DNA of 64,000 nt from Verrucomicrobiota bacterium (lineage in GTDB: Bacteria > Verrucomicrobiota > Verrucomicrobiia > Verrucomicrobiales > Akkermansiaceae): positions 931 through 64,930 of the forward strand of contig JBAXBG010000001.1 of NCBI GenBank assembly GCA_037142115.1, in the 5' to 3' direction. Numbering within the stretch: the stretch's first letter is position 1; the number at the start of each line of letters is the position of its first letter. The position numbers were made by a program, and so were the translations under genes. This document shows positions 7,675-43,819 of the stretch, in pieces. Below the pieces are notes generated by a model. That model did no database searches. It saw nothing but the letters and a program-made list of their open reading frames with translations, and was not told the DNA's origin.

Positions 7675-7713
7675 TGCCGCATCAACTGGGGCTCAACGGT
7701 CATGGAGGGAACT

Positions 7714-7815
7714 CATACTCCCCCAGAACGCCGCTTCCAGCGTAGGTAAAGACCGCCTGAAGGCGGTACTACATACCTCCCCGAGCACGTCGCTTCCAGC
7801 GTAGGTAGTCCCGCC
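7714..7815. repeat. two ~44-bp direct repeats (59-bp period) with an embedded GC hairpin; REP-like
   Basis: The exact 17-mer cgcttccagcgtaggta occurs at 7732-7748 and 7791-7807 with similar flanks (catac(t/c)cccc.ag.acg). Hairpin ACCGCC-tgaa-GGCGGT at 7752-7767. Confidence 0.65.
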
Positions 7816-21009: not shown

Positions 21010-21019
21010 CTTACAACCC

Positions 21020-24096: not shown

Positions 24097-24114
24097 GACG
24101 GTAGATGTTGGGGG

Positions 24115-26709: not shown

Positions 26710-26718
26710 CCAGCCGGA

Positions 26719-27498
26719 TCATCGGCTGCCGCCCCAGAACACGCTGCTCACGCCGCCCAGTTTGTCGAAGCGCCGGATGTCTTCATTGGACAGCAATTCC
26801 GTGTGCCCGTCATAAAATACGGCAATCGCCTTGTTGTTGTGTCGATAGGCAATCTGCCCGTTGTCGGTTTTGCCCTCCACTGGATTCGCCAACCACGAGC
26901 TGCGGCCGTCAAAGCGGACCAGATAGTCCGTGGCCGTGATGAAGTTCATCATCCGTGCCGGCGCGCTCATCCTAACAACCGACTGCTGGGCCTTTTGATT
27001 CCTCCCTCCAGATACGTAGGGGAGCGGTATATTTTCGTCATTGTAGCCGTAGCTTGCTGAAATCCGGTCCGAAAACCGCTTCTTGGCCCGCACCGCGAGC
27101 GGGTCGAGCACCACTTCCGGCATGCCGCCGATGCCCTCGTATCCGGTGACCCCGTTGAGAAACTCAGTGTCCCCGATCAAGGGGCCGAGGAAATCCGCGT
27201 TGAAGTGCCACATCACGCCGGCCTGTCCATTCCCGTCGAAGGAGAGGATCGGAACGTAACTGCCGTTGTGCTCGGTGGCGTAGATGGCATTCGCGGTGCC
27301 AAGACCCTTGATTCGGTCGGTCGAGAGCACCATGGAACTCGCCGCGCGGGCGCGCTGCCAACCCGCCATGGCCAGGCTGGCAAGGACGGCGATGATCAGG
27401 ACGACCACCAGCACCTCCACCAGGGTGAAACCTGCGCGGCTGAAGCGATGGCCTTTCATGAATGTGACCTGGGGTGCCGTGGTTTGCGGGATTGCCAT
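26719..27498 (-). CDS. prepilin-type N-terminal cleavage/methylation domain protein (H-X9-DG class)
   Basis: MKGHRFSRAGFTLVEVLVVVLIIAVLASLA prepilin signal, so the likely true start is 27459. C-terminal HNNKAIAVFYDGH. Confidence 0.9.
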   Translation of the reverse strand: MAIPQTTAPQVTFMKGHRFSRAGFTLVEVLVVVLIIAVLASLAMAGWQRARAASSMVLSTDRIKGLGTANAIYATEHNGSYVPILSFDGNGQAGVMWHFNADFLGPLIGDTEFLNGVTGYEGIGGMPEVVLDPLAVRAKKRFSDRISASYGYNDENIPLPYVSGGRNQKAQQSVVRMSAPARMMNFITATDYLVRFDGRSSWLANPVEGKTDNGQIAYRHNNKAIAVFYDGHTELLSNEDIRRFDKLGGVSSVFWGGSR

Positions 27499-27629
27499 CT
27501 GGAGTGGTGCGGTAAAGCTATCAAAACGCCGAATCCTCGGTGAACTTCGCGGGATTCACCTGCATACGGCGGATAATGCCTTTAGGTTTATCGCAAGCTT
27601 CGCGCTTCGCTCTCAAACCCCAATCCACG

Positions 27630-29681
27630 TCAGTGAGCCTGGTCTTTGTAAACGCGCACCCAATCCACCTGCATGGTGTAGGGATAGGTTCCCGCGGTCG
27701 GATCTCCGCCCCATGAACCGCCCACGGCCAGGTTGAGAATGAGCCAGAACGGCTGGTCAAAGGGCCATTGGGCCTGGCTGGTTCCCAGCTGCGCCTTGGT
27801 AACGGTGAAATACACACTGTGGTCCACGTAGAAGGACAGCTTGTCCGCCGTCCATTCCATGCCGTAAGTGTGGAAGCTGGTGTCGTAGTCATTGATGCCA
27901 AAGCCGCCGGTCTTGCCGGTGCCGATGGTGTGGTTATAGGCCTCGGTGTGAATGGCGGCACCAATGTTATCGACCACGTTGGCGTGTTCCATGATGTCGA
28001 TCTCACCGCATTTCGGCCAGCCAACGTCAGGGATATTGTCGCCCAACAGCCAAAAGGCCGGCCAAGTGCCCTGACCACGTGGCAATTTCATCCGGGCCTC
28101 GATTTTGCCGTATTGAAAAGATATTTTGCCCTGGCCCTGCACCTTGCCGGAGGTGTATGCCGAGGTTTTGGATTGGCCGTTCATCCACGGGCCGGTGCCG
28201 GTGTAGTTTTCTTGGATGGCGGTCAGACAGAGACAGCCACCGGCGACCGAGATATTTTGCGCGCGGTTAGTGTAAAACTCCAACTCGCCGTTGTCCACAT
28301 TGCCATGCTGCACCGGGAGCCAGTTGCCGGTGTTGAGCACGGGACTGTCGAATTCGTCCTGCCAGAACAGCACATAGTCAGCAGTGTGAATTCTGTCCGT
28401 CGAGAACCGGAACCAGTCAAGATTGCAGACGCCGGCAGCACCCACGGCGACAAAATAGAGGTCCCGCACCCCGATGACATCGGCGACGTTGACCTGCTGT
28501 TCGGTATAGGTGGACCATCCTCCCGTTGCCACAGGAGTGATCACTCCCAGCAGCGGACCGCTCGGACTGTCTAGGCGAAGCTCGACCGCACCGCCGGAGT
28601 TGGCCTTGGCTACGGCAAGGGTGACGCTGGCCACTCCATCTCCGAAATCGACATTCCCAAACTTCACCCAGTCGCCGCTGTCGAACCAGCCGATGGCGGT
28701 GTTGCCGGGTTCCAACTGGATGCCGGACATGCTGGAGAAGTTTTCGGCCTGAAGCGTGCTGAAGGCGTCGATGGTAGGCCCGAGGTTGGCCGCCACCCGA
28801 TAGAACATCTTCGGCTGGTTGACTGGCACCGCGACGCTGATCGAGCCGCTGCCGCCGGCGGGAATACTGTTGAGTGCAGCCTGTGGTGCCACAAAGGAAC
28901 TCCATGGACCACCCGGTGCCAAGGCCCACTCCACCCGGTAACCGGTTGCGGCTGCCAACTCGTTGAACCGCAACTGGCCGCTGGTATCGAGGGAGGCGCG
29001 CAAGGGGTTCTGCAAACCGGACTGTCTGGAAACGATCCGCAGGTTGGCGGAGTATTGGTCGCTGTTATTTCCCGCATTATTATTGAACACCTGGATGCCC
29101 GAGACCGGAGCATCCACCGTGCCGGTCCAGGAGTGACCATTCAGCGTGGCACGATAGGTGACTTCACTGGTCAGCGTGAAGCAGAAGGCCATCAGGACAT
29201 TGGGATTGTAATCCTGCCCCGTGGCAACGCCGGTATTCGTGGCATCCGTATATTTGAAGAACGAGCTTCCGCCGGTGAAGGCAATTGTCACTCCAGATCC
29301 CCCGACACTGAGCAATTGAACTCCGACGACTGTGTCCGTGTCGATATGGGTGTTGTGGGCGTAGTCAAGCGATACCGTCTGGCCGGGTGCCAGCGGCCCA
29401 CCGGCGAAAGTGTGCGTCTGGGTGACTGAGCCGCCGCCGCCGCCGCCATAGCACCAGATCGACCACACCGGTGTGCCGCCGATCGAGCCAGTGCCGCTGC
29501 CGGTGGCACCGGTATGAACCACGGTCCATGAGTCCACGCCGGTGGAACCGTTGAGCACCGCATCGGCGCTTTGATCGGGACTGGCCAGCATGGCGAAGGA
29601 GCCAGGGGTGGCGGCGTAGGCATCACTCCCGAGCGAGGTGAGAGCCGCTAGCAGCGTGAGGATGGTGGTGGTCTTGGTCAA
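27630..29681 (-). CDS. GH16 beta-glucanase with CBM6 and an N-terminal unassigned WSIWCYG6 domain
   Basis: GH16 catalytic GEIDIMEH with WPAFWLLG. CBM6-like LQAENFSSMSGIQLE...GDWVKF. TTG start followed directly by a signal peptide (TKTTTILTLLAALTSLGSDAYA). Confidence 0.9.
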   Translation of the reverse strand: MTKTTTILTLLAALTSLGSDAYAATPGSFAMLASPDQSADAVLNGSTGVDSWTVVHTGATGSGTGSIGGTPVWSIWCYGGGGGGSVTQTHTFAGGPLAPGQTVSLDYAHNTHIDTDTVVGVQLLSVGGSGVTIAFTGGSSFFKYTDATNTGVATGQDYNPNVLMAFCFTLTSEVTYRATLNGHSWTGTVDAPVSGIQVFNNNAGNNSDQYSANLRIVSRQSGLQNPLRASLDTSGQLRFNELAAATGYRVEWALAPGGPWSSFVAPQAALNSIPAGGSGSISVAVPVNQPKMFYRVAANLGPTIDAFSTLQAENFSSMSGIQLEPGNTAIGWFDSGDWVKFGNVDFGDGVASVTLAVAKANSGGAVELRLDSPSGPLLGVITPVATGGWSTYTEQQVNVADVIGVRDLYFVAVGAAGVCNLDWFRFSTDRIHTADYVLFWQDEFDSPVLNTGNWLPVQHGNVDNGELEFYTNRAQNISVAGGCLCLTAIQENYTGTGPWMNGQSKTSAYTSGKVQGQGKISFQYGKIEARMKLPRGQGTWPAFWLLGDNIPDVGWPKCGEIDIMEHANVVDNIGAAIHTEAYNHTIGTGKTGGFGINDYDTSFHTYGMEWTADKLSFYVDHSVYFTVTKAQLGTSQAQWPFDQPFWLILNLAVGGSWGGDPTAGTYPYTMQVDWVRVYKDQAH
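29034..29612 (-). other. unassigned ~195-aa domain, copy 3 (N-terminus of the GH16 protein)
   Basis: Residues 24-216: ...GTPVWSIWCYGGGGGGSVTQTHTF..GQTVSLDYAHNTHIDTD...GIQVFNNNAGNNSDQYSANLRI. Confidence 0.8.
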
Positions 29682-32600
29682 ATTCCCGGATTTCGTTGGC
29701 TAGATGTTGATGCAAGAACGGAAGGACTCGTCGCCTCGAACCCAGCCTTGCGAATCATTGTTAGCCTATCACCAGGCCGCCGGCGGCGCAGCAGGACGAG
29801 CATCCCGCAGCCGCCGACCAGCATTGCGACGTCAGGCTCCGGGATCGCGGTGTAGGTGAGCACGAGGTCGTTGCCAGTCTGGCCAAGCGCCCAGGTGCCG
29901 GTGTCCGGATTGGTGAAGCCGGCCGTATCGATCGTCCAATTGGCGGCATTGAAGCCGGTGAGTCCGGTGCTGGTGAGGATCGTCCAGGAGTGGTTGATTT
30001 CGCTGAAATCAGCCGCCGCGCCGGCCACATTTTCGCCGGTCAGGGAGAGCACGTTCAGATGGTAAGTCCCGGTGTCCGGAGCAAGCCCCAACGAGTTAGC
30101 GATGGCGATCTGGTCAAAGCCCGTGCCCGCGACGGTGCTGGTAAAGTTGTTAATCTCCCAGTCATAGCTGAACGAGCTCCACGCTTGGGCCGGGGTGAAC
30201 GACAAGGTTCCCGGGCTGTTGCCGGGCGAGAGGGTGGTGGCCGGATTGTTCAGGATCACCGGCGAGCCGATCGTGCCGCTGCCGCCAAGCACCGCGCTGC
30301 CGGTGAGGGCGATGCCCACGGTCAGGGCGGTGCTGCTGTTGTAAACAAATTTAGACCCGGCCGCCACCGTGACCCCGCTGCTGGAGTTGATCGTGCCCGC
30401 GGTGTCGATTTTGAGCGTGCCGCCGGCCACGGTGGTCGCGCCGCTGTAGGTGTTGGCAGCGTTGAGGGTGGTGGTGCCGGAGCCGGCTTGGATGATCGAG
30501 CCGGTGCCGGTGATGGCGGCTCCGCTGAAGTCCGTGCCTTGCACCGCGGCATTGCTGCGGTTGATGGTTAGGGAGCCGTGGTTGATGATGGCGCTGGCCG
30601 CCGCCAGACTGCCGGTGGTGCCGCCGCTGCCGAGTTGAAGTTTGCCATTCGCACTGATCGTCGTGCCGCCGGTATAGGTGTTACTTCCCGTTAGAACGAC
30701 GACCCCCGTTCCAGACACCGTTTGAGGAGTGATGGCCGCGCTCGAAGTCCCGGTATAGACGGTGTAGGATCCCGCGATATTGAGATTGGCCGATCCGCTC
30801 ACCACGCCGCTGAGCGTCAGGTTGTTCGCGGAAACGTTGCCCCACGTTTGATCCGAGGTCAGGGCGATGTTCGCCGAGATGAAGTGCGCTCCCGTGCCCT
30901 GCTGCACGGTGATGCCGCCGCCGCCGAGGCTCAGGGTATTGGATCCCCCCACGGCGACCGACCCGGTGGCACCGGCCGCGAAGTTCAGGCTGCGCACCGT
31001 GGTGTCGGCCCCGAGCGTGGTCACCAGCGGCGCGGAGTTGCCGTTGAAATAGACATCCGCGTAGGAGTAGGTGGTGGCGGTGGAATCGGTGAGCTGCTTC
31101 TGCCGGTCCGTCGTGCGCGCGGCATCCATCGCCCAGTTGGTATTGGTGCCGCCGTTGAGGGTGTTCCAGTTCCCGTCCTGGTTCCCGGTCCAGTAGGCGG
31201 CACCATATACCGTGCTGTGATACATGATATCGCCCATCAGGTTGTAGCCGGCCTGGGTGAGATGAACCCCGTCCGAGCTGAGGTTGGTTAGCGAAGCTCC
31301 CGGCGTGATGAGGTTGTATAGGTCGACAAACTGGACGCTCTGCCCGGCTAACACATGGTTGTAAACGACGCCCTGGACATAAGGATTGTAATAGGTGTTG
31401 ATATAGCTTCCGACGTCGGAACGATACATCAGGTTGCTGGCGAGAGTAGTCACCCCCGCGCGCAGGGTGTTCACTTGTGAGACGATGGCGTCATACCGGT
31501 TGATGGACTGGGTGTCGGTGTGATTGGCCGCAAAGTCATTGCCCCCGACATTGAGTGGGACATAGTTCGGGTTGATGCCGTTGCCTGGAGCCAGCCAATA
31601 GCCGCCGTTATTTCCCGCGCTGCCATCATTGGCGTTGAGGTTATTGAGGATCTGGTTGGTGGTGTAGCCGGGGTGCCCTTCCTGATTGGTCTGCCCCGCA
31701 GTGCTGAGCAGGTTGGGAGAGGCCGGGTTATTCGCATAAAGATTGGTGTTGCTGCCGACAAAATTGGGCGTGAATCGCCCGTCGTTGACGAGGTTGGCAT
31801 AGAGCTGGGTGTGGAACCCGCCGCCGTCGTAACTGCTTTGGGAGCTGTATCCCGCCATGATTGAAGCGCCCAGCGGCATGATGCTCATCACATGGCTTGG
31901 AATGCCGGACGAGATGACGGCCTGCTCCGCGGTGCCGGTGTTAGCCAGCGTGACGCGGTAGAAGGTGCCACTGCCGTTCTTCACGATCAGCGAACTGAGC
32001 GACCCGGCGAGATCCTGCGCGCCCGCAAACTGGAACGTGCCGGTTAACCCGCCAGCGGACGAGGTGATCAGATTGCTGGTGCCGGCTCCGGCAATCCCGG
32101 AGGGATTGAACCCGATATAGTGGGTGCCGCTGACGCTGGCGGAACTTGCGGCCAGAGTGTTGACACTGCCACCCAGGTTGAAGCCCGTGAAAGTTCCACT
32201 CGTGCTGGTCAAGAGGCCGACCGAGGAACTGTACCCACCCAGGTTGAGTGACCCGCCGCTGTTCACCGTCAGACTGCCGGTGGCGGCTCCCAAGGCGGCG
32301 GCGTTGCCGAGCTGCAGCCAGCCGGCAGTGACGGTCGTGCCACCGCCGTAGGTGTTTGCGCCGTTGAGGGTCAACGTGCCACTGCCGACCTTGTTCAGGG
32401 TGCCGGTGAGCCCGCTGATCACGCCATTGAGCACCGGGCTATAGCTTTGGGTGTCGAGGGTCGCGGTCACGCCCGCGCCGATGGCCACCAAACGGTTAGC
32501 ACTCAAAGCGCCAGACGAAGGGGTTTGAAAAAACCGCAGGGTGCCGTTGCCGGCGAAGGTGAGATCCGTCGCGGGCGTGACGGGAATCGCCCCGAGGCCG

Positions 32601-35600
32601 CTGCCCTCCCAGATGCCGACCGTTCCCGAATTGATCGTCACTCCTCCCGTGTAGGTGTTGCCGCTCCACAAGACCAGTGTCCCGGAGCCGCTCTGTACGA
32701 TCGAGCCGCTGCCGGAAATGATCGACCCGCTGTAGTCGGTTCCAGCCGACACCGTGTTGCTGCGATTGAAGACCAAGGTCCCGTTATTGAGGATCGTGCC
32801 GCTGGCGGAGAGTGCGCCGGTGGTGCCACCGTTGCCGATTTGCAGGGTGCCACCCTTGATCGTCGTGGTGCCGGTATAGGTATTGGTCCCAACCAGAACC
32901 GCCGTGCCGGTGCCGAACTTCGCAAGCCCGCCGGCACCGCTGATGACGCTCCAGAGCTGCAGCTTGTTGCTCGAGACCAGGTCCAATCCCGATCCGCTGG
33001 CAATCACGATCGAGGGTGCAATCTGGCTGCCGCCGGAGGTGGCGTCGCCGGGCGCGAACCCACCGTCGGAAATCGCGCCGCCGTTCGACGTCACGTTGAT
33101 AGTCCGTGTGCTGAGATAGCCGGCACCGCCGTTGGCGGTGAACTGGAGCGTGCCGGCGTTGAGATTGAGCACGTTGCCGGTCGAGCCCCCCAAAACGTTG
33201 CCGGCCGCGATTCCGAGCACGCTGTCGTAGAGTCCCGTGGTGCTGTTATAGCTGCCGCCCTGCGCGGTCCAGGTGGAGCTGTTAGCGAGCCCGCCGCCGC
33301 TGCTGTTGACGATCAGGGATCCGGCCCCGATCTTGACCACGTTGGCCGCGCCGGCGCTGCTAACCAGGCCGTTGATCGTCAAGACGTGGCCATTGGTGTC
33401 TAAGGTGGCCGTCGCGCCGGTGGCAACGCTGATCGTGCGGTTGACATCGAGCGTGATGTTGTTGGCGCTGTCCTGGAGGGTGGCGCTGCCAAGGAACTGG
33501 AGGTTGGCATAGGGACCTACCGGAGCCACTCCGAGGCTGCCGTCGCCATAAATGCCCAGGGTGCCGGCGTTGATCTGGGTGCCGTTGCCGTTCAGGAACC
33601 CGGCGCTGGTGCCCGTGTAAGTGTTGCTGGTGTTCTGCAGGATGAGCGTCCCGGTGCCGTCTTTGTAGAGATAGCCGCCCGCCGCGTTGGCACTTCCCAG
33701 AACCTCGCTGATCGTGGTATTGCCGCTGCCGTTGACCGTCAGTTGATTGCTATTGATATTGATACTGTTGGATCCGGCGAAGGCGAGCAGGGCGGTGGCG
33801 GTGGTGGAAGTGAACACCGCCGCGTTATTCAGGGTGATCGAGCCGCTGTAGGTCGCCGTGGTGGCGGCCGCGTTGGTCGCGCTCAGGGTCCGGTTCGACG
33901 CGCTGCCCGGGTTGATCGTGATGGGGTTTGCCAAGGTGACGGCCGCACCGAGTTGCAGAGTCGCGGCGGTTCCCGTGGTGCCGCCGTTGCCCACATAGTA
34001 GGTTCCGCTGGTGCCGGTGCCCGTCGTCGCGGCGGCCACCACCAAGATCCCGGCATTGAGATCGGTTTCGCCGCCATAGGTGTTGCTGCCGGCGAGAACC
34101 AGAGTGCCGGTGCCGACCTTGGCCAGCGACCCGCTCGTTCCAGTGATTTGACCCGAAAAGGTAGTCGTGCTGGCGGTATTGGTCGTGAGCGTCAGCCCGG
34201 CCCCAATGGCAATGGTTCCGCCCGCGCCTGAAATCGCGCCGATGGTATCGGAGGCCCCTGCGGTGAAGGTTCCTGAGGTGATGGCCAAGGTTGCCGTGTC
34301 CGCCAGATTGGCGGTGCTTTCCGTGGTCAGATTCCCGCCCGTGAGCGAGTAGCCCGAGGTCGCCGTGGTGCTGACAATTTGCAGGTTGCCCGCCTGAATC
34401 GTCGTCGCCCCCGTGTATAATGAGGCACCATACAAGCGCAAGGTGGTTGACGCACTGGCCGCGTTGAGCGTCAGCGACCCGGTGTCTCCGGCAAGACCCA
34501 GGGTGTTGAAGTGATACATGGTGGAAGCGGCCCCGCCATTCATGGTCAGCGTCTTCGCTCCCAGCTTGACCGATCCGCCGTTACCCGAGCCGGTTTCGGA
34601 GAGGATCGACACGCTGATACCAGTGGTGACTCCGCTGATATCAAAGACCCCGCCACTGCTGACGTTCACCCGGGAACCGCTGGCACCATTGGCCAGGCTG
34701 CCACTGCCCGTCAGGGCGAGGGTGCCGGCACCCACCGTGGTGGTGCCGGTGTAGCCATTGGCCGCGGCAAGCCGCAACGTGCCACCACCCAGCACGGATA
34801 ATGTGCCAGTGGAGCTATTGAGACCGCTGGCCAGGGTCACCGTTTGGGTGTTGGTGTCAATGCTGTAGGCTTGGCCGGCCGCGCTGCTGAACCGGCCGGA
34901 ATAGTCGGTGGTGTTGCTGGCACTGGACTGCAAAGTTCCGCCGCCGAAGCTGATGGTGCCGGTGGCACCCAGGGCACCGGAGCTGCCAAGGGCAAGCGAT
35001 CCTCCATTCAGGTTCGTTCCGCCGCTGTAGGTGTTGGCACCCGAGAGGGTGATCGTGCCGCTGCCGGTCTTGCTCAATGCGAGGGTCCCGGTGCCGGAGG
35101 TGTGATCGGCGAGGACTCCCTGATAGTTGCCGCCTGTGCCATTGCCAGTGCCGATGGTCAATGTCACGTTGCTGCCAGTGGAATTGTTAAGGATGGTGCC
35201 GCCTGTGCCGCTGAAGTTGCCCACCGCCTGGGTCGTTCCGTTCAAGTCGAGTGTCCCGCCGTTGACTGCCAGCGACCCGCTGGTGCCGCCCAGGGTCCCC
35301 GAGCCCGTGAGTTGCAGCGTGGCCGCGGTGACCGTGGTGCCGCCGGTGTAGGTGTTGGCGCCAGTCAGGGTGAGGACGCCCGTCCCCGAACCGGTCGCGA
35401 CCAGCGCTCCGGCGCCGGTGATGATCCCATTGTCGGTGTTGTTGAAACCCTGCGTGTCAAGTGTCGCGCTGACTCCGGTGTTGAGCGTGAAATTGCGGCC
35501 TACGGCCAGCGCGTTGCTGCCGCCCGACACTTGGAACTGGAGGCTGCTGGTGCCCGAAAAGGTCAGGCCGGCACCTCCCAGCGCTCCCAGATTGCTGCCG

Positions 35601-36238
35601 GCGGAAATGCCGAGCGTGCCACCGGACAGGGTCACGCCGCCGGTGAAATAGTTGACCGTGGTGAGGATGGTTTTGCCCGAGCCTGTGACTGCCAACGCGC
35701 CAACCGAGCTGGACCCGTTGTTGATCGCGCCGGAAAAAGTCACCGTGGTTCCGCTGTTAGTCTGACTCGTCAGGGTGGTGTTGAGATCCAGATAGATCGG
35801 GCAAGTGATCGCAAGGCTCCCCGTGTTGGCATACAGGGTCATGTTCTTTTCCACATCGAGCTGATTGAGCGAGATGGTCTGGAGGTTGGTGCTGTCATTC
35901 TCGATTTTCGGCAGCACTCCGCCGTAATCATAGAAATTCATGCCGTTGCCGGTGAGGGTGAACGCCCCCGCCCCCGCATCGAAAAGAATCTGGAAGGCGG
36001 TCCAGTTGGCAAATCCATTGACCGGTGCCAAACGGGTGGTGCCGGCGAAATGCAGGTAATTTTGCAGCCCGCCGGGCGCGGATCCGCCCCAGTTGGCACC
36101 GGTTGACAGACTGCTATCGGTGCCGCCACCGTTCCAGGTGAAGGTGCTCTGGGCGAACGCCTGGGGCGCGGAGAAGAAGGGGGCTAAGGCGCAGACCGCC
36201 AGGGAGAGCTTGGCAAAGGAACGGGATTTCAACTTCAT
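29678..36238 (-). CDS. giant (2186 aa) PATR repeat protein with an embedded SGNH/GDSL hydrolase domain and a PEP-CTERM signal
   Basis: Signal peptide. Dozens of GTLxLxGxNTYTGGTT repeats. SGNH blocks at residues ~1448-1680. IPEPDVAMLVGGCGMLVLLRRRR near the C-terminus. Confidence 0.9.
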   Translation of the reverse strand: MKLKSRSFAKLSLAVCALAPFFSAPQAFAQSTFTWNGGGTDSSLSTGANWGGSAPGGLQNYLHFAGTTRLAPVNGFANWTAFQILFDAGAGAFTLTGNGMNFYDYGGVLPKIENDSTNLQTISLNQLDVEKNMTLYANTGSLAITCPIYLDLNTTLTSQTNSGTTVTFSGAINNGSSSVGALAVTGSGKTILTTVNYFTGGVTLSGGTLGISAGSNLGALGGAGLTFSGTSSLQFQVSGGSNALAVGRNFTLNTGVSATLDTQGFNNTDNGIITGAGALVATGSGTGVLTLTGANTYTGGTTVTAATLQLTGSGTLGGTSGSLAVNGGTLDLNGTTQAVGNFSGTGGTILNNSTGSNVTLTIGTGNGTGGNYQGVLADHTSGTGTLALSKTGSGTITLSGANTYSGGTNLNGGSLALGSSGALGATGTISFGGGTLQSSASNTTDYSGRFSSAAGQAYSIDTNTQTVTLASGLNSSTGTLSVLGGGTLRLAAANGYTGTTTVGAGTLALTGSGSLANGASGSRVNVSSGGVFDISGVTTGISVSILSETGSGNGGSVKLGAKTLTMNGGAASTMYHFNTLGLAGDTGSLTLNAASASTTLRLYGASLYTGATTIQAGNLQIVSTTATSGYSLTGGNLTTESTANLADTATLAITSGTFTAGASDTIGAISGAGGTIAIGAGLTLTTNTASTTTFSGQITGTSGSLAKVGTGTLVLAGSNTYGGETDLNAGILVVAAATTGTGTSGTYYVGNGGTTGTAATLQLGAAVTLANPITINPGSASNRTLSATNAAATTATYSGSITLNNAAVFTSTTATALLAFAGSNSININSNQLTVNGSGNTTISEVLGSANAAGGYLYKDGTGTLILQNTSNTYTGTSAGFLNGNGTQINAGTLGIYGDGSLGVAPVGPYANLQFLGSATLQDSANNITLDVNRTISVATGATATLDTNGHVLTINGLVSSAGAANVVKIGAGSLIVNSSGGGLANSSTWTAQGGSYNSTTGLYDSVLGIAAGNVLGGSTGNVLNLNAGTLQFTANGGAGYLSTRTINVTSNGGAISDGGFAPGDATSGGSQIAPSIVIASGSGLDLVSSNKLQLWSVISGAGGLAKFGTGTAVLVGTNTYTGTTTIKGGTLQIGNGGTTGALSASGTILNNGTLVFNRSNTVSAGTDYSGSIISGSGSIVQSGSGTLVLWSGNTYTGGVTINSGTVGIWEGSGLGAIPVTPATDLTFAGNGTLRFFQTPSSGALSANRLVAIGAGVTATLDTQSYSPVLNGVISGLTGTLNKVGSGTLTLNGANTYGGGTTVTAGWLQLGNAAALGAATGSLTVNSGGSLNLGGYSSSVGLLTSTSGTFTGFNLGGSVNTLAASSASVSGTHYIGFNPSGIAGAGTSNLITSSAGGLTGTFQFAGAQDLAGSLSSLIVKNGSGTFYRVTLANTGTAEQAVISSGIPSHVMSIMPLGASIMAGYSSQSSYDGGGFHTQLYANLVNDGRFTPNFVGSNTNLYANNPASPNLLSTAGQTNQEGHPGYTTNQILNNLNANDGSAGNNGGYWLAPGNGINPNYVPLNVGGNDFAANHTDTQSINRYDAIVSQVNTLRAGVTTLASNLMYRSDVGSYINTYYNPYVQGVVYNHVLAGQSVQFVDLYNLITPGASLTNLSSDGVHLTQAGYNLMGDIMYHSTVYGAAYWTGNQDGNWNTLNGGTNTNWAMDAARTTDRQKQLTDSTATTYSYADVYFNGNSAPLVTTLGADTTVRSLNFAAGATGSVAVGGSNTLSLGGGGITVQQGTGAHFISANIALTSDQTWGNVSANNLTLSGVVSGSANLNIAGSYTVYTGTSSAAITPQTVSGTGVVVLTGSNTYTGGTTISANGKLQLGSGGTTGSLAAASAIINHGSLTINRSNAAVQGTDFSGAAITGTGSIIQAGSGTTTLNAANTYSGATTVAGGTLKIDTAGTINSSSGVTVAAGSKFVYNSSTALTVGIALTGSAVLGGSGTIGSPVILNNPATTLSPGNSPGTLSFTPAQAWSSFSYDWEINNFTSTVAGTGFDQIAIANSLGLAPDTGTYHLNVLSLTGENVAGAAADFSEINHSWTILTSTGLTGFNAANWTIDTAGFTNPDTGTWALGQTGNDLVLTYTAIPEPDVAMLVGGCGMLVLLRRRRPGDRLTMIRKAGFEATSPSVLASTSSQRNPGI
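29777..29845 (-). other. PEP-CTERM motif followed by a 32-aa extension
   Basis: IPEP + hydrophobic helix + RRRR at residues 2132-2154. Translation then continues PGDRLTMIRKAGFEATSPSVLASTSSQRNPGI to the stop. Confidence 0.8.
31199..31897 (-). other. SGNH/GDSL esterase-like domain inside the PATR giant
   Basis: Block I IMPLGASIMAGY, block III VGGNDF, block V SDGVHLTQAGY. PATR repeats flank it on both sides. Confidence 0.75.
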
Positions 36239-36396: not shown

Positions 36397-37902
36397 TCAG
36401 GGGATATCCACCACTTGGAAAAACCGTTTGGGGGTGACGTCCGGGGCGACCGGCAGGGTGATCACCTGGGACACCTGACTCGCGGTGAACTGCGATCCCA
36501 CCACATCGGCGAATCCCGCCAGCGTCACGGAATCCCGGACCTTGTAATTGCTCCCCACCACCAGGCCAAGCACGGTGAATTGGATCTGCGTATTACCGGC
36601 AAGCATCTGCACCGAGCTGATGCGCAGGCTGGGTTGCGGGGCGGTGATCTGCAGGTTGGCGGCCGACTGGTCGCTGTTATTTCCCGCATTATTGTTGAAC
36701 AGTTGGATACCCGTGACGGGGGCGTCGAGAGTGCCGGTCCAGGTGTGCCCGTTGAGCGACGCGGTGTAGGTGGTTGCGCTGGTGACGGTGAACGAGAAGG
36801 GCATCAGCACATTGGCATTGTAGTCTTGGCCCGTGGATACACTCGTGTGCGTGGCATCCGTGAATTTGAACATCGAGCTGCCGCCGGTGAACGCAATCGT
36901 CACGCCGGACCCGCCGACACTGAGCAATTGGATTCCAACGGTCGCATCCGTGTCGATATTGGTGTTGTGGGCGTAGTCGAGCGACACCGTCTGGCCGGTT
37001 GCCAGCATACCTCCCGCGAACGCGTGCGTCTGAGCGATGACTCCTCCGCCCCCGCCAGCCCAGCACCAGATGGACCACACCGGGGTGGCCCCGATGCTGC
37101 CCTTGACGCAGCCGGTGGCGCCCGATTGGACCACGGTCCAGGCATCGACATCGGTGGTGCCATTCCACACCGCATCGGGGTTGACGTTCGAACTGGCCAA
37201 CACGGCGTAGGTGCCGGGGATCGCGGTGGCGGCGGCAACCTTCAGGTTGGCAGAATACTGGTCGCTGAAATCGCCGGCATTATTGTTGAAGACCTGGATG
37301 CCCGTGATCTCAGTGTCCACCGTGCCGGTCCAGGTGTGCCCGTTGAATGTCGCACAGTAGGTGGTGGCGCTGGTGAGAGTGAACGAGAACGGCATCAAGA
37401 CACCCTGGTTGTAATCCTGGCCGGTGGAGACATTCACGTACGTGGAGTCGGAGAATTTGAACATCGGGCTGTTGCCCGTGAACGCAACCGTAACCGCCGG
37501 CCCACCCGCACCCGCAAATCCCCCGGCACCGATCAAATTCAGGCCGATAGTGGCGCCGTTGTTAATGTTGTAGTTGTGGGCGTAATCGATCGACACCGTT
37601 TGGCCGACCGCCAGCGCCCCGCCGACGAAGGTGTGGGTCTGGGCAACGATTCCTCCTCCTCCGCCGCCATAGCACCAGATGGACCACACCGGGGTGCTGC
37701 CGACCATGCCTGTCGCGCTGCCGGTGGTGCCGGTATTGCCCACCGCCCAGGCATCGACGTTGCTGGTGCCGTCCAGCACCGCATCAGGGTTTTGGCCCGG
37801 ACCAGCCAAAAAACTATAGTTGCCAGGGGATGCTGCAAACGCAGCACTTCCAAGTGAGGTGATGGCCGCGAGCAGAACGGATAAATTGGGGAATGGGTTC
37901 AT
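36397..37902 (-). CDS. secreted protein with two tandem copies of the unassigned WSIWCYG6 domain plus a C-terminal beta-sandwich-like tail
   Basis: Signal peptide MNPFPNLSVLLAAITSLGSAAFA (start at 37902; the ORF opens at 37983). Two collinear ~195-aa repeats. Confidence 0.85.
   Translation of the reverse strand: MNPFPNLSVLLAAITSLGSAAFAASPGNYSFLAGPGQNPDAVLDGTSNVDAWAVGNTGTTGSATGMVGSTPVWSIWCYGGGGGGIVAQTHTFVGGALAVGQTVSIDYAHNYNINNGATIGLNLIGAGGFAGAGGPAVTVAFTGNSPMFKFSDSTYVNVSTGQDYNQGVLMPFSFTLTSATTYCATFNGHTWTGTVDTEITGIQVFNNNAGDFSDQYSANLKVAAATAIPGTYAVLASSNVNPDAVWNGTTDVDAWTVVQSGATGCVKGSIGATPVWSIWCWAGGGGGVIAQTHAFAGGMLATGQTVSLDYAHNTNIDTDATVGIQLLSVGGSGVTIAFTGGSSMFKFTDATHTSVSTGQDYNANVLMPFSFTVTSATTYTASLNGHTWTGTLDAPVTGIQLFNNNAGNNSDQSAANLQITAPQPSLRISSVQMLAGNTQIQFTVLGLVVGSNYKVRDSVTLAGFADVVGSQFTASQVSQVITLPVAPDVTPKRFFQVVDIP
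36646..37224 (-). other. unassigned ~195-aa domain, copy 2
   Basis: ...ATPVWSIWCWAGGGGGVIAQTHAF..GQTVSLDYAHNTNIDTD...GIQLFNNNAGNNSDQSAANLQI. Confidence 0.8.
37240..37833 (-). other. unassigned ~195-aa domain, copy 1
   Basis: ...STPVWSIWCYGGGGGGIVAQTHTF..GQTVSIDYAHNYNINN...GIQVFNNNAGDFSDQYSANLKV. Confidence 0.8.
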
Positions 37903-38175
37903 GTGGAGCATTTCTACGGGTTGATTTAGGGGGGAATTGTGGATTTGGGCTCTCCTGCGTTTGGGATCGCAGACCGTCCTCAATGCACACGCCGAAACTC
38001 CGTCGGCGGTTTACGGAATCAAACGATTTTTTTCGCAGCGCTCGCGGGAGTGTGATCCTGGGAGCCGCCACGGCATGCGAGAAACCGCCACTTGCAACAC
38101 TGAGTGGCGCGCAAGGTTGAGGAATAGTCGTGGGCAGGATTCCGACTCTCGAGCAAATTCACCCGCCCAAGCGGA

Positions 38176-39624
38176 TCAGTTGATCTTGCGAATCGAGTTC
38201 GCGGCCGAAAGCACCGTCGCCTTGATCTTGCGCACGGCAATGTTGCTGCGGACGTTGATGGCATCGTACAATTTGACTTCCTCGGCGTTGCCGCCGGCAT
38301 CGAGAATCGCGTCCATCACGCTGCCATTGGCGATGCGGATCCGGTCAAAGGCGAGGCCCGGGGCAATCCATTGCGAGGCCCGCGGGGTACCGGTGGTTTC
38401 TTCGCCCTCGAACAACTCCACCAGGCCCGTGCGATAGTCATACCGCAGGGTCACCGTGCTGATCCCCTCCAGCAATGGACAGGCATTGATGGCCTGCCAA
38501 CCCACCGGGTGCAGCGCCCAGTCTCCGCTGCTGCCGCACGGATCACCGACGAAGATCCGCTCCTGATCACCGGTGTAGAGGCTCACGCCCGCCCACCCTT
38601 CGTCACCTGGGCCGCGGCCTTCGATGGTCAACAAGAGGATGTGCGTGAGATCATTCAGATACGGCTGCCCGAGCGGCGCAAAGGCCGCGTTGCGGCGTTC
38701 TCCACGAGTATCCAGCACGCCGTTTCTAACTTCCATGGCCCCGCGCGTGGTCCGCCATGGCCCCGCACCGATATCAGGCAGCTTCCCATCCAGGGGAGTA
38801 CCGTCGGCGTCATGGAAATCATCGGCAAACACCACGACTTTTTCAGGAAACGCCGCCGAGAACGCCGCCTGGCCCTTGGCACCTTCGAGCTGTTGGTCTT
38901 TCCAGGCGGCCCCCTGCCCTTGCACCAGGTTGTGGATTTCCGCCGGGCGCTCGATCGGATGCAGCCGGACCTTGCCCTTGATCACATAGACGGCTTCCGG
39001 ACGGCCCGGATCCGCTATCACTCCGAACTCGGTCCCCAGATCTTCCACAAACAGCGAATCCGTCGCGCACACGAAGCCATCCGCGCCCGCCGGAACCTCG
39101 AACCAGGCCCGCCCGGAGTGCAACCGCAGCTTGTTAGGATTCTCCATGTCCAGTTTGCCCGGACCCTCGAAATATCCTTTGACCCCGCTGGGCATGACGA
39201 TTGCCACCGAACCACGGTCCAATTCCAACGTCGAACCCACCCACATCAGGTTGGTGCCAACCCGGCCCTCCGGGTGCTCGGTGCGACCTTTGGATTCCGG
39301 CCCGTAAACCAGGATGGCCGTTGGCTCGGGCGTGGTCAGCCGCAACAAGCCCGCGGCGCTTGCCAGCAGCGCAACGACCGCCACCAACGCCAGCCACATC
39401 CGCCGCCGCCGCACGGCCATCGGACTGGCGGGCATGCGGACAATATTGCCGCCGCTGACTTCAAATTTTTCCACCAGCAGGTGATGGATTTTCACGTAGC
39501 TGAGATAGAGACGGCGGAATTCGCGATCCTGCCGCATCCGTTCCTCCACCTTGGAAAATTCAGCCTCTCCGAGTTTGCCATCAAGGAGATCCTGAATCGT
39601 GGTTTCGTCGTCGCGCAGGCTCAT
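38176..39624 (-). CDS. FecR-type anti-sigma factor with a large extracytoplasmic domain
   Basis: N-terminal anti-sigma helix (DLLDGKLGEAEFSKVEERM). One TM segment (MWLALVAVVALLASAAGLL). FecR-like beta region. The ATG overlaps the sigma stop (ATGA). Confidence 0.85.
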   Translation of the reverse strand: MSLRDDETTIQDLLDGKLGEAEFSKVEERMRQDREFRRLYLSYVKIHHLLVEKFEVSGGNIVRMPASPMAVRRRRMWLALVAVVALLASAAGLLRLTTPEPTAILVYGPESKGRTEHPEGRVGTNLMWVGSTLELDRGSVAIVMPSGVKGYFEGPGKLDMENPNKLRLHSGRAWFEVPAGADGFVCATDSLFVEDLGTEFGVIADPGRPEAVYVIKGKVRLHPIERPAEIHNLVQGQGAAWKDQQLEGAKGQAAFSAAFPEKVVVFADDFHDADGTPLDGKLPDIGAGPWRTTRGAMEVRNGVLDTRGERRNAAFAPLGQPYLNDLTHILLLTIEGRGPGDEGWAGVSLYTGDQERIFVGDPCGSSGDWALHPVGWQAINACPLLEGISTVTLRYDYRTGLVELFEGEETTGTPRASQWIAPGLAFDRIRIANGSVMDAILDAGGNAEEVKLYDAINVRSNIAVRKIKATVLSAANSIRKIN

Positions 39625-40178
39625 GTTGATAGCCCCCTTTCTGCAATGTGGTCCGCGGGCTTGCTTGATAGAGAGTTCTCAATGCAGCGGCGCAACGCCG
39701 CGCGGATTTTGAACAGCCGGGCTTTCAAGGTTCCCGAACTGCGTTGCAAGGTGTGGGCGTATTCGGTCAGTCCGCAAGAGCTCGCATACCGCATTTGGAC
39801 CAGCTCCATGTCCTGCGGTCGCAGTTTCCCCATGCATCCCTCCAGCGCCCGCAGCGCATCTTCCCAATCCGCGGGACCCTCCTCCAGGTCCTGCGCAAAT
39901 TTTTCCGCCACCTCTTCACCAAAAACCAACCAGCCGTTGCGCTGCAGGCGCTTGCGCTGGCCCAACACCTCGAACCGCGCGACCGCAAACGCCCAGCTCT
40001 TGAAGTTGGTTCCAGGAACGAAATGGTCCTTCTTGGCCCAAAGCACCAGGTTCGTTTGCTGCAGGATGTCCTGAGCACCGGGACAGCCACCCATCAGGGA
40101 ACGGACGTAGGCCAGGATCGGCCCCTGATGAAGGGTCAGCTCCCTGACGAAGTCGCTATCTGGATTTTCCGTAGGCAT
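39621..40178 (-). CDS. ECF-type RNA polymerase sigma factor
   Basis: Start MPTENPDSDFVRELTLHQ at 40178; the longer ORF to 40493 lacks coding signal. Region 2 (FKSWAFAVARFEVL) and region 4 (GLTEYAHTLQRSSGTLKARLFKIR). Confidence 0.85.
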   Translation of the reverse strand: MPTENPDSDFVRELTLHQGPILAYVRSLMGGCPGAQDILQQTNLVLWAKKDHFVPGTNFKSWAFAVARFEVLGQRKRLQRNGWLVFGEEVAEKFAQDLEEGPADWEDALRALEGCMGKLRPQDMELVQMRYASSCGLTEYAHTLQRSSGTLKARLFKIRAALRRCIENSLSSKPADHIAERGLST

Positions 40179-40416
40179 CCGTTTGTATACGGACCGTTTC
40201 GCCAAACGGTTTACCGATTCAAGGAAAATCATTAGAATCACGCAGGCCTCCACCGCCGCCGGGGTGAATCCGGCGCCACAACCCTGGAAACCACGCTGGG
40301 TCCGGATTTTTTTCACCGAAAACGCCTTGCTTGTCGGCGCGTTGCCCGCTACCCCACGGCCGTTTTGAGCCGGGCTTCGCACTCTCTGCCGCCCGGACCT
40401 TCCAGCATTCACCGCC

Positions 40417-41643
40417 ATGAAACCGAAAAAAGTCGCCATTCTCACCGCCGGGGGGCTCGCCCCATGTCTGTCCAGCGCCATCGGCGCGCTCATCGATCGC
40501 TACACCGAGATGGATCCCTCGATCGAGATCATCTGTTATCGCGGCGGCTACAAGGGCCTGCTGCTGGGCGACAGCATCACCGTTTGCCAGAAGATCCGGG
40601 ACAACGCCCACATCCTCCACAGCTACGGCGGCAGCCCGATCGGCAACAGCCGGGTCAAACTCACCAACGTCAAAGACTGCGTGAAACGCGGCCTGGTCAA
40701 GGAAGGCGAGGAACCGCTGGAAGTCGCCGCACGCCAAATGATCAAGGACGGCGTGGACGTGCTCCACACCATCGGCGGTGACGACACCAACACCACCGCC
40801 GCCGACCTCGCCGCCTTCCTTGAGAAAAACAACTACAACCTCACCGTCATCGGCCTGCCCAAGACGATCGACAACGACGTCTATCCGATCCGCCAGAGCC
40901 TCGGCGCCTGGACCGCCGCCGAGCACGGCGCCCACAACTTCGCCAACGTGGTGGCCGAGCACAATGCCAACCCGCGCATGCTCATCGTGCACGAGGTGAT
41001 GGGCCGCAATTGCGGCTGGCTCACCGCCGCCACCGCCCGCGAGTATCAGGACGGGCTCGCCACCCAGCAATGGCTGCCAGAAATCGGCCTCACCAAGGAG
41101 CGCTTCTCGGTGCATGCGGTCTACATTCCCGAGATGGCCATTGATTTCGATGTGGAAGTCGCCCGCTTGAGCCAGCTCATGGACGAGCATGACAACGTCA
41201 ACATCTTCATCTCCGAAGGTGCCGGCCTGGAGGATATCGTGCGGGCGATGGAGGCGGCCGGCAAAACCGTCGTGCGCGATGCCTTCGGCCACGTGCGGCT
41301 CGATGCCGTCAATCCCGGTGCCTACTTCGCCAAGGAAATCGCCGCCCGCATCGGCGCGGAAAAGACCCTGATTCAAAAGAGCGGCTACTACAGCCGCGCG
41401 GCCGCCGCTAACAACGCCGACCAACGCCTCATCAAGGGCTGCGTCGACCTCGCCGTCGAATGCGCCCTGCGCCGCGAAGGCGGAGTCATCGGTCACGATG
41501 AGGACCGCAACAACACCCTCCGTGCCATCGAGTTCGACCGCATCAAGGGCGGCAAGCCCTTCGATATCGACACCCCGTGGTTCGAGGATCTGCTCGCCAC
41601 CATCGGCCAAACCAAAGGCGCGCGCGTCGAGGTCGGCCACTGA
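40417..41643 (+). CDS. pfp: pyrophosphate-dependent 6-phosphofructokinase
   Basis: PFK motifs ILTAGGLAPCLS, HTIGGDDTNTTA, GLPKTIDNDV and MGRNCGWL. The ~408-aa length is typical of short PPi-PFKs. Confidence 0.9.
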   Translation: MKPKKVAILTAGGLAPCLSSAIGALIDRYTEMDPSIEIICYRGGYKGLLLGDSITVCQKIRDNAHILHSYGGSPIGNSRVKLTNVKDCVKRGLVKEGEEPLEVAARQMIKDGVDVLHTIGGDDTNTTAADLAAFLEKNNYNLTVIGLPKTIDNDVYPIRQSLGAWTAAEHGAHNFANVVAEHNANPRMLIVHEVMGRNCGWLTAATAREYQDGLATQQWLPEIGLTKERFSVHAVYIPEMAIDFDVEVARLSQLMDEHDNVNIFISEGAGLEDIVRAMEAAGKTVVRDAFGHVRLDAVNPGAYFAKEIAARIGAEKTLIQKSGYYSRAAAANNADQRLIKGCVDLAVECALRREGGVIGHDEDRNNTLRAIEFDRIKGGKPFDIDTPWFEDLLATIGQTKGARVEVGH

Positions 41644-42721: not shown

Positions 42722-43819
42722 TCATACCCTCACCCGCAAATCCCTGACGCTCCACAGCAGCCCCTTCGCGCCGCTGCCGCTGCCCCTCATCGAACGCGCG
42801 CCATCCTTGCGCTTGGCGCTGAACCTCTCCCGCGCCTGCGCAAACGCCTCGTTCACAAACCCCTTGCTCCCAATCACCGCCCCGTCTGTGAAATACCTCA
42901 CCCGGCATCGCAACATCTTCGCCATGCCAAGGTCCTTCAAGACCGTGCCGTTGTCCCTGCCTTCCAACATCTCAGCCGTGTTCATAGTGCCTTGACCCTG
43001 ATGGTTTCCGGCTCCAGCCAGTTCCGCCCGCCCGGCTTTGCGTCCCAGCGCCATGCCCATCAACCGCCGATATAAGCGTGCGACCTCCGACCATTTTCCC
43101 GCCTCAAATCCCACTCCCTGATCGCAATAATACGCCCTCACCAACCCCTCGCGCGCTTTTTTTCCGTTCCCTTTCTTGCCGCCTCCCACGGCTTCGCCAT
43201 AGCTGCTCCAGCGGTAATCCGCCGGGTCTTTCACCATTCCGGCTCGCACCGGATTGAGGTCGATATAGGCCGCCATCGTCCGCGCCGCCACCCCGCTTTC
43301 CACGATCACGCTCTTGAATCGTTCTTCCCACAGCGTCCCGGTCCGCGAATGCACCCGGTTGAACCACCTCGTGAAGCGAATCAGCAACCCTTTCATGAAC
43401 TCACTGAGATCATGCATCCGGTAGGTGTATCGAGCATGAATGGCCGCCACCCGCGCCCGTCCCGCACCACCGTCCGCGCCGGCATCCTTCTTCCTCGCCG
43501 CCGCCAATTCCACCGCCACTCCCGCCACAACCCCCTCGGCATATAGCCCGCCCAATCGTTGCAACAACTCCTCGTCACTCAGCCCGCCATCCACCATCCG
43601 CGGCACCTCCAGCAGCAAGTGAAAGTGGTTCGACATCACGCAATACGACAATACCCGGCAGCCCGAGAATTTCTCATACATCCGCAGAAACATCCGGAAC
43701 GCCTCGCATTCCCGCTCCCCAAACACATACCGCCGATCCACCACCCGCGAGATGCAGTGATAGATCACCGGCTTCCTCGCGGAATCCTTCCACCCCGCCA
43801 GCCATCGGGCTCTGCGCAT
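42722..43819 (-). CDS. RAYT-like (IS200/Y1 HUH) tyrosine transposase family protein with a long C-terminal extension
   Basis: HUH motif in YCVMSNHFHLLLEVP. Catalytic Tyr region YIDLNPVRAGMVKDPADYRWSSYGEA. Confidence 0.8.
   Translation of the reverse strand: MRRARWLAGWKDSARKPVIYHCISRVVDRRYVFGERECEAFRMFLRMYEKFSGCRVLSYCVMSNHFHLLLEVPRMVDGGLSDEELLQRLGGLYAEGVVAGVAVELAAARKKDAGADGGAGRARVAAIHARYTYRMHDLSEFMKGLLIRFTRWFNRVHSRTGTLWEERFKSVIVESGVAARTMAAYIDLNPVRAGMVKDPADYRWSSYGEAVGGGKKGNGKKAREGLVRAYYCDQGVGFEAGKWSEVARLYRRLMGMALGRKAGRAELAGAGNHQGQGTMNTAEMLEGRDNGTVLKDLGMAKMLRCRVRYFTDGAVIGSKGFVNEAFAQARERFSAKRKDGARSMRGSGSGAKGLLWSVRDLRVRV

Follow-up and report, generated by a model that had tools for sequence, protein, structure and literature searches.

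What is the domain of ~195 amino acids that a verrucomicrobial genome encodes three times within one polysaccharide-degradation locus, and what does it do there? The locus lies in a 64,000-nucleotide stretch of contig JBAXBG010000001.1 from a Verrucomicrobiota bacterium of the Akkermansiaceae (hereafter "the window", meaning the whole stretch that was analyzed). The domain, called "the module" below, occurs twice in a tandem protein and once in an enzyme that also carries a carbohydrate-binding module of family 6 (CBM6) and a glycoside hydrolase domain of family 16 (GH16). An initial annotation of the sequence proposed it as a new carbohydrate-binding or substrate-sensing module. We followed up this proposal with profile searches, structure prediction and comparison of gene neighbourhoods, and present the module as a candidate new carbohydrate-binding/lectin family.

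Three module copies and their sequence relatives

All three copies are encoded on the minus strand, and hidden Markov model (HMM) envelopes together with an alignment confirmed their collinearity and the positions first assigned to them (Table 1). Every shared motif that had been listed for them was found in the alignment. Amino-acid identity is 65% between copies A and B, 64% between A and C, and 74% between B and C (71-77% among the copies at the nucleotide level), with copy-to-copy tblastn E-values of 1e-66 to 1e-92. Copy A has a six-residue insertion, GAGGFA, which is found in neither B nor C. No fourth copy was detected in the 64-kb window by tblastn.

The arrangement as a tandem pair plus a separate copy N-terminal to CBM6 and GH16 was borne out by Pfam. 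The 683-aa enzyme matched CBM_6 at residues 311-427 (E 3e-33) and Glyco_hydro_16 at residues 508-675 (E 1e-23), and NCBIfam added partial β-glucanase matches; its GH16 domain, at residues ~440-683, is separate from the module. The two module genes had been described as neighbours, which they are not, as the gene of a 2186-aa PATR-repeat protein lies between them. Pfam revealed no PEP-CTERM signal in either the tandem protein or the GH16 fusion. The 23-residue leader of the tandem protein is the same in two orthologs: that of L007, a locus syntenic with the whole window cluster, and that of L011, which provides a third ortholog of the tandem-module gene. The C-terminal region of ~82 aa is likewise conserved in both. 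The segments following the module in the two window proteins (~80-95 aa; 36397-36645 and 28752-29033, both on the minus strand) end in ...FFQVVDIP and ...FYRVAANL, respectively, and showed no similarity to each other by BLASTP; similar "FYR(V/I)" endings were seen in several relatives (P0029, P0030, P0036).

Comparison of orthologs gave dN/dS values of 0.15-0.22 for the module copies, indicating purifying selection; copy C and its counterpart in L007 share 92% identity, at a dN/dS of 0.15. All three copies are older than the split of the organisms that harbour the window, L007 and L011.

Neither the 528-aa product of the full open reading frame (ORF) of the tandem gene nor the isolated copy matched any Pfam or NCBIfam model at E ≤ 1. 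When 45 diverse members were compared with Pfam, nothing convincing was obtained, the best match being limited to a single member (E 0.0016). Profiles built from 3 and from 45 sequences found matches at chance level only among the PDB sequences (a fimbrial protein and auracyanin, E 0.06). The module matched none of the Pfam-A/NCBIfam models for CBM_6, CBM_35, CBM_4_9, Laminin_G_3, Alginate_lyase2 and Glyco_hydro_16. The initial view that it corresponds to no named Pfam module is thus supported by profile searches of Pfam, NCBIfam and PDB sequences.

Relatives could only be made visible by a full HMMER scan and by profile queries, and a word-index search with the single sequence of copy B returned none. 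The full scan, covering 1.84 billion representative proteins, gave 81 matches at E ≤ 1e-3, from which P0053 (a repeat protein) and P0064 were dropped as spurious on the basis of their domain tables. Two profile searches of a collection of 5.8 billion clusters retrieved 64 and 48 proteins, whose sole precomputed Pfam domain was PF07589 (PEP-CTERM). The relatives are named either "hypothetical protein" or "PEP-CTERM sorting domain-containing protein". All those assigned to a taxon belong to the Planctomycetes-Verrucomicrobia-Chlamydiae (PVC) superphylum: Opitutaceae/Verrucomicrobiota, Anaerohalosphaeraceae and Bythopirellula (Planctomycetota), Pontiella (Kiritimatiellota), and a metagenome-assembled genome from lichen labelled "PVC group". 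Judged by these searches, the module is a rare, previously unannotated family, confined to the PVC superphylum as far as sampled.

A predicted jelly roll and its conserved residues

An AlphaFold2 model of copy B was built from 60 sequences and reached a predicted local distance difference test score (pLDDT) of 85.9 and a predicted template modelling (TM) score of 0.84. It is all-β with 14 strands, and its first ~26 residues are of low confidence. An earlier run with the three paralogs only (pLDDT 62.7) was set aside. Foldseek comparison with the PDB retrieved solely concanavalin-A (ConA)-like jelly rolls, many of them with a probability of 1.0, at identities of ≤15%. The lowest E-values were those of alginate lyases of polysaccharide lyase family 7 (PL7; 1uai and 5zqi, 5e-5), and the highest TM score among the PDB matches was that of Cip1 (3zyp, 0.64). 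Further matches included the lectin-like Hc-N domain of tetanus and botulinum neurotoxins (TeNT Hc-N), the lectin domain of the Vibrio cholerae sialidase (2w68), the SasG lectin (8g1m), calreticulin (3o0x), CBM11 (6r31), EG16 (5dzg) and a phage carbohydrate esterase. In BFVD, phage proteins labelled "ConA-like lectin/glucanase" matched with TM scores of up to 0.66. Over all structural matches, identity was ≤18% and TM scores were 0.5-0.66, and the nearest solved CBM structure reached only ~0.5.

As modelled, the module is at fold level a β-jelly roll of the ConA-like lectin/glucanase superfamily, with which it shares the two-sheet arrangement, ~14 strands and a Foldseek probability of 1.0. It differs from that superfamily in showing no relation at HMM level and in not conserving the catalytic or ligand motifs of its members. 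What is new is the sequence family; the fold is a common one. A known CBM fold, which had been named as an outcome that would speak against a new module, was therefore encountered at the level of the fold (ConA-like jelly roll) but not at the level of the family.

One domain of the same fold class, Laminin_G_3 (LamG_3; PF13385), shares proteins or loci with the module (P0016, P0026, L016, L018, L024), and in these PVC proteins often stands beside dockerin-like or PEP-CTERM ends. It is C-terminal there, whereas the module is N-terminal, and hmmscan gave no match between the two. Aligning the family profile with the co-occurring LamG_3 segments in hhalign gave a probability of 0.5%, i.e., no relation. 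No relation was found by hhalign to the C-terminal domain of the anti-sigma factor encoded in the window either, and hmmsearch with the family profile found nothing in that FecR-like protein, even with filters off. Because both hhalign comparisons were negative, the module is neither a divergent LamG_3 domain nor a copy of the sensor domain.

The enzymes among the structural matches raise the question of whether the module is itself catalytic, representing a new family of lyases, hydrolases or esterases that has, like PL7, GH16 or Cip1, a cleft in the jelly roll. Besides the leading E-values of PL7 and the leading TM score of Cip1, the matches to EG16 and to the phage carbohydrate esterase fit such a role. 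Residues conserved in ≥90% of the family (copy-B numbering) are W29, G38, L74, G77, Q78, G97, D123, Y153 and G164, of which Q78, D123 and Y153 could be read as catalytic, and a Q-T-H triplet in the close subgroup recalls the Q-I-H motif of PL7. PL7 enzymes use a catalytic Arg, a Gln-x-His pair and a Tyr, embedded in the motifs RxELR, QIH and YFKAGxYxQ, and the catalytic strand of GH16 reads E-x-D-x-(x)-E. The module lacks the RxELR and YFKAG motifs as well as any Pfam match to PL7. Its likeness to Q-I-H is partial: not even all members of the close subgroup keep the Gln of Q-T-H, and distant members have A-x-R at this place. The ExDxxE motif of GH16 is also missing: Glu is conserved at no position of the family alignment, nor is any pair of acidic residues. 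No member matched a catalytic Pfam model at E ≤ 1. The enzymes matched at ≤15% identity and TM scores of about 0.5, and lectin domains matched equally well. We consider a catalytic function improbable, and regard the module as most likely non-catalytic because neither an acid pair nor a PL7 or GH16 catalytic motif is conserved.

A TPVWSIWC motif followed by a run of Gly had been described as invariant, and the Cys beside the Gly run as unusual for a CBM. Inside the window the motif is indeed invariant. Outside, copy B of L007 reads TPVWAIWSWGGGAGG, with Ser in place of Cys, and L011 reads WDIWCNAVGGGG. Seven of the eight close copies (window, L007, L011) have the Cys, the exception being copy B of L007, and their Gly runs read GGGGGG, AGGGGG, GGGAGG or AVGGGG. 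Among 149 near-full-length domains of the family, 136 (91%) contain no Cys at all. In the model, the motif occupies the last part of strand 47-54 together with the hairpin loop at residues 55-61, which varies in length and composition across the family. Since this loop is variable and most domains are free of Cys, the Cys/poly-Gly motif is an incidental, lineage-specific trait of close paralogs and orthologs and no functional signature. A conserved disulfide was rejected for the same scarcity of Cys and because the second Cys of each window copy is at a differing position.

Domain architectures, gene cassettes and the inferred role

Architectures were counted for 149 family members. The module lies within the first 45 residues, i.e., behind the signal peptide, in 135 of them; 131 are ≤300 aa long, and 120 (~80%) end in a PEP-CTERM-like signal (VPEP-hydrophobic-RRR). 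A typical relative of ~250 aa thus consists of a signal peptide, the module and a PEP-CTERM anchor. As most members are short and end in PEP-CTERM, the two module proteins of the window are atypical. The signal of the majority is the one known from exosortase substrates (PF07589), which the window's two proteins do not share; PF07589 marks the sorting signal and not the N-terminal module.

In longer members, the N-terminal module is fused to GH3 (P0017, L001), GH5 (P0034), GH31 (L012) or, in the window, CBM6-GH16. Other fusions are with an SGNH esterase (L019), PA14 (L002, L023), LTD/MopE proteins, and immunoglobulin-like (Ig) plus LamG_3 domains (P0026, L016, L018, L024). In the GH16+CBM6, GH3, GH5 and GH31 fusions, the module is a discrete predicted fold contiguous within a carbohydrate-active enzyme, which agrees with the structural part of the generic CAZy definition of a CBM; the other part of that definition is demonstrated binding of carbohydrate. 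A 1275-aa protein in L019-L021 (7734-11561, plus strand) contains three divergent module copies, with He_PIG Ig domains between them. Ahead of it stand the module-SGNH esterase fusion (6323-7753, plus strand) and a histidine kinase with PA14 plus a LuxR-type regulator, which represents a different regulatory solution.

These architectures could also be explained by attachment to the cell envelope, in which the module would tether secreted proteins to the cell's own outer surface or exopolysaccharide, or would aid the assembly of exosortase-sorted proteins. The strict position after the signal peptide and the dominant pairing with PEP-CTERM fit this explanation, as do the differing specificities of the fused enzymes (GH3, GH5, GH16, GH31, SGNH) and the CBM6 already present on the GH16 enzyme. 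However, members with PEP-CTERM are already anchored, so that a second anchor would be redundant in ~80% of the family, and the tandem protein of the window has two copies but no cargo. The ConA-like fold and the close linkage to sugar-responsive regulators also favour recognition of a substrate. We therefore find attachment or assembly an unlikely main function, albeit one with some support from the architecture.

The module genes recur in cassettes with regulators. In L007 the gene order is PFK followed by sigma factor, anti-sigma factor, tandem-module protein, PATR/GDSL giant protein, module-CBM6-GH16 enzyme, prepilin-like protein and six-hairpin GH. A second cassette type, found in L002, L016, L023 and L024 and partially in L003, is built around GH31: sigma factor, anti-sigma factor with an NPCBM-like C-terminus, module-PEP-CTERM protein, module-PA14 or module-Ig-LamG_3 protein, and GH31-PA14. 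The third (L004; GH30/LamG) has a divergent sigma/FecR/GH30 unit beside a module protein and a LamG_3/dockerin/module protein. In the window, L007, L002, L016, L023 and L024, the module genes follow immediately after the sigma/anti-sigma pair; in L004 the pair is divergent. Elsewhere, the partners of the module are GH13 or GH66-CBM6 together with a histidine kinase and a LuxR-type regulator (L019-L022), LacI regulators (L005/6, L008/9), or GH66 and a transporter of the sugar ABC type (L013).

In the window, the tandem protein had been described as a stand-alone secreted protein directly downstream of an extracytoplasmic function (ECF) sigma/FecR pair. The gene order and the sigma factor (Sigma70_r2, r4_2) agree with this; the FecR match is weak (E 2.5e-4, 21.9 bits against a Pfam cut-off of 24), and the protein has the additional ~82-aa C-terminus. 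The pairing of an ECF sigma factor with a FecR-like anti-sigma factor, known from FecIRA systems, is nevertheless supported by jackhmmer, which connected the window anti-sigma factor to those of L002, L004, L016 and L007. The sigma ORF as listed (39621-40493, 290 aa) appears overlong by about 105 codons. Its start is probably the ATG at 40178, as the L007 ortholog is called at 185 aa and a promoter-like motif lies inside the extended ORF.

This ECF-type motif, GTAAACC-N16-CGTRT, has two exact sites and one site with a single mismatch in the 64 kb, against 0.15 expected. All three are kept in position in L007 (5791-5818, 7992-8019, 18465-18492). The site before the sigma gene suggests autoregulation. 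With only ~8 nt between the end of this site and the ATG, the transcript may be leaderless or have a very short leader. Because the motif sites are shared and conserved in L007, the tandem-module gene would be a direct target of the autoregulated neighbouring sigma factor. A simple search for AAC-N15-18-CGT revealed no shared promoter in the GH31-type cassettes, where the module gene follows the anti-sigma gene after ~75 bp and is probably co-transcribed with it.

Being the first gene after the sigma/anti-sigma pair in three cassette types (GH16 in the window; GH31 in L002, L016, L023 and L024; GH30/LamG in L004), the module gene might encode the ligand-sensing partner of that pair. A surface lectin would then report glycan to the FecR-like anti-sigma factor in place of a TonB-dependent transducer, and no such transducer or receptor was found among the cluster genes scanned (17.5-43.8 kb of the window). 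Yet the first gene of a regulon could equally well encode a highly expressed binding protein, and many members stand beside LacI or two-component regulators, or beside none. Moreover, the anti-sigma factors have large extracytoplasmic domains of their own (NPCBM-like in L023 and L024, unassigned in the window) that could sense directly. We think it rather doubtful that the module proteins act as sensors. Spelled out as a PVC-specific, TonB-independent route of surface signalling, the idea is that a secreted or PEP-CTERM-anchored lectin would capture glucan and relay this to the FecR-like anti-sigma factor through the latter's extracytoplasmic domain, upon which the released ECF sigma factor would drive its own promoter and those of module and GH genes via GTAAACC-N16-CGTRT. 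This scheme, too, would be a surprise to us.

Taken together, the lectin/CBM-type fold, the obligatory secretion, the fusions with many GH families, the sugar-responsive regulators nearby and the lack of a catalytic acid pair or PL7/GH16 motif point to a module of the lectin/CBM type that binds glycans without catalysis, either on enzymes or at the cell surface, a role that we judge probable, though by no means assured. The idea of a new carbohydrate-binding or sensing module gains from the unmatched family, the discrete predicted fold and the GH/regulator context; the fold itself is not new, and the Cys is no hallmark. Several observations weigh against glycan binding. The associated hydrolases span α- and β-glucan families plus an esterase, which makes a single ligand unlikely. 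The GH16 enzyme already carries a CBM6 and does not obviously need a second binding module. The top Foldseek E-values belong to lyases, about half of the sampled loci have no sigma/anti-sigma pair, and a role unrelated to a substrate, such as anchoring or assembly, is possible.

For the module proteins we infer carbohydrate binding, surface location and sigma dependence from the above, and the partner enzymes hint at the ligand. They are mostly glucan-active, on β-glucans (GH16, GH3, GH5, GH30) or α-glucans (GH31, GH13, GH66). The obvious guess would be β-1,3-glucan at the window locus; in the GH31 cassettes the ligand would be α-glucan, and specificity probably differs among subgroups. Under the glycan-binding hypothesis, the module would retain glucan on the cell surface or on the enzyme that bears it: the tandem protein would provide bivalent capture, and the GH16 β-glucanase would be targeted by copy C jointly with CBM6. 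Expression of the whole set would be turned on by the neighbouring ECF sigma/anti-sigma pair via the common promoter motif.

The surrounding cluster and comparable systems

The cluster runs on into an island of carbohydrate-active enzymes (window 17542-27498; Table 1). The 2186-aa PATR protein between the module genes includes an SGNH/GDSL-like segment, as indicated by a Pfam match in the L007 ortholog, and a PEP-CTERM-like stretch, IPEPDVAMLVGGCGMLVLLRRRR, was recognized by eye near its C-terminus, followed by ~40 more residues. The stop codon of its gene overlaps the start of the GH16 gene by 4 bp, which suggests translational coupling.

The C-terminal ~225 aa of the anti-sigma factor (38176-38860, minus strand; residues ~256-482) form a second domain without an assigned family. 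By jackhmmer it has a relative in L014 (5595-6377), a stand-alone protein of 260 aa encoded close to a module gene, and a weak link to a GH31/PA14 enzyme of Pontiella, at the N-terminus of that enzyme (L003, 10920-15443). A PEP-CTERM protein of L024 (7129-7911) begins with a similar "DDF.Y.DG...GGTGWD" motif. Going by these sequence links, the domain seems to represent a sister family of small surface or sensor modules in PVC bacteria.

A 365-aa ORF (42722-43819, minus strand) matched an IS200-like Y1 transposase at residues 18-74 only and is far above the typical length of IS200 TnpA. Long antisense ORFs of 420-567 aa (36415-37857, 38371-40074 and 34844-36106, all on the plus strand, and others) are an artefact of the ~62% GC DNA and were not counted as genes.

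Table 1. Positions in the window of the module copies, the genes around them and the promoter-like motif sites
Feature	Position	Strand	Details
Copy A	37237-37833	-	Residues 24-222 of the 501-aa tandem protein; HMM envelope and alignment
Copy B	36646-37224	-	Residues 227-419 of the 501-aa tandem protein; HMM envelope and alignment; modelled copy
Copy C	29034-29612	-	Immediately behind the GH16 enzyme's signal peptide; HMM envelope and alignment
Tandem-module ORF (A + B)	36397-37983	-	Probable ATG at 37902, giving 501 aa; orthologs in L007 and L011 start equivalently
Predicted signal peptide of tandem protein	37834-37902	-	23 residues, MNPFPNLSVLLAAITSLGSAAFA followed by ASPG; putative cleavage site
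C-terminal region (~82 aa) of tandem protein and stop codon	36397-36645	-	Matches no Pfam model
Module-linker-CBM6-GH16 gene	27630-29681	-	683 aa; CBM6 ~28401-28751, GH16 Pfam match ~27657-28160
ECF sigma factor	39621-40178	-	Probably 185 aa from ATG 40178; Pfam Sigma70_r2/r4_2
FecR-like anti-sigma factor	38176-39624	-	482 aa; transmembrane segment and ~225-aa C-terminal domain
Motif GTAAACC-N16-CGTGT	37987-38014	-	Exact; 85 nt upstream of the tandem-module gene
Motif GTAAACC-N16-CGTAT	40187-40214	-	Exact; immediately upstream of the sigma gene
Motif ATAAACC-N16-CGTAT	27564-27591	-	One mismatch; upstream of the prepilin-like gene
PATR-repeat protein	29678-36238	-	2186 aa; autotransporter-type β-strand repeats; between the two module genes
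Prepilin-type (N_methyl) protein	26719-27498	-	Pfam
Six-hairpin GH	24115-26709	-	Weak MGH1/GDE_C/GH94-like matches
244-aa protein	23362-24096	-	Matches no Pfam model
GH66-like protein	21020-23365	-	Pfam
GH43+PATR protein	17542-21009	+	Pfam

The closest parallel is the laminarin locus of Christiangramia forsetii, in which unassigned domains proved to be laminarin-binding CBMs: CBMxx, a β-sandwich, recurs within a stand-alone glycan-binding protein of the cell surface, and CBMyy occurs singly on a GH16 enzyme (bioRxiv 10.1101/2023.09.07.556657). As in the window, these were unassigned domains of one β-glucan locus without a close structural relative before their characterization, and copies arose by internal duplication (identity 47-84% there, 64-74% in the window). 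However, the sequences showed no relation, and the PDB search with Foldseek gave no close match. The C. forsetii locus is a SusC/D locus of Bacteroidota with lipoprotein anchoring, whereas the window is from the PVC superphylum, in which the proteins carry either a plain signal peptide or PEP-CTERM and an ECF sigma factor would exert control. Two different CBM families serve the binding protein and the enzyme there, while the window has the same module on both, and binding is proven for C. forsetii and predicted for the module.

For the regulation, FecI/FecR-type signalling and the ECF-sigma-controlled glycan loci of Bacteroides offer a comparison. Here as there, an ECF sigma factor and a FecR-like membrane anti-sigma factor stand beside glycan-degrading genes that they presumably control, and a promoter-like motif is common to the sigma gene and a target gene. 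The window differs in that no TonB-dependent transducer was found among the cluster genes covered by the scan, and in the unassigned C-terminal domain that the anti-sigma factor has of its own.

PVC bacteria are important degraders of polysaccharides in soil, freshwater and the sea. To our knowledge, they lack the SusC/D machinery that eased the reading of glycan loci in Bacteroidota. As the module recurs with sugar-responsive regulators and glycoside hydrolases, it could serve as a marker of PVC-type glycan-utilization loci. Should binding of carbohydrate be shown, the module would be the founder of a new CBM family. The stand-alone tandem protein and the enzyme-borne copy, under an ECF promoter-like motif, would make the window a compact model that could show how PVC bacteria sense and capture glucan.

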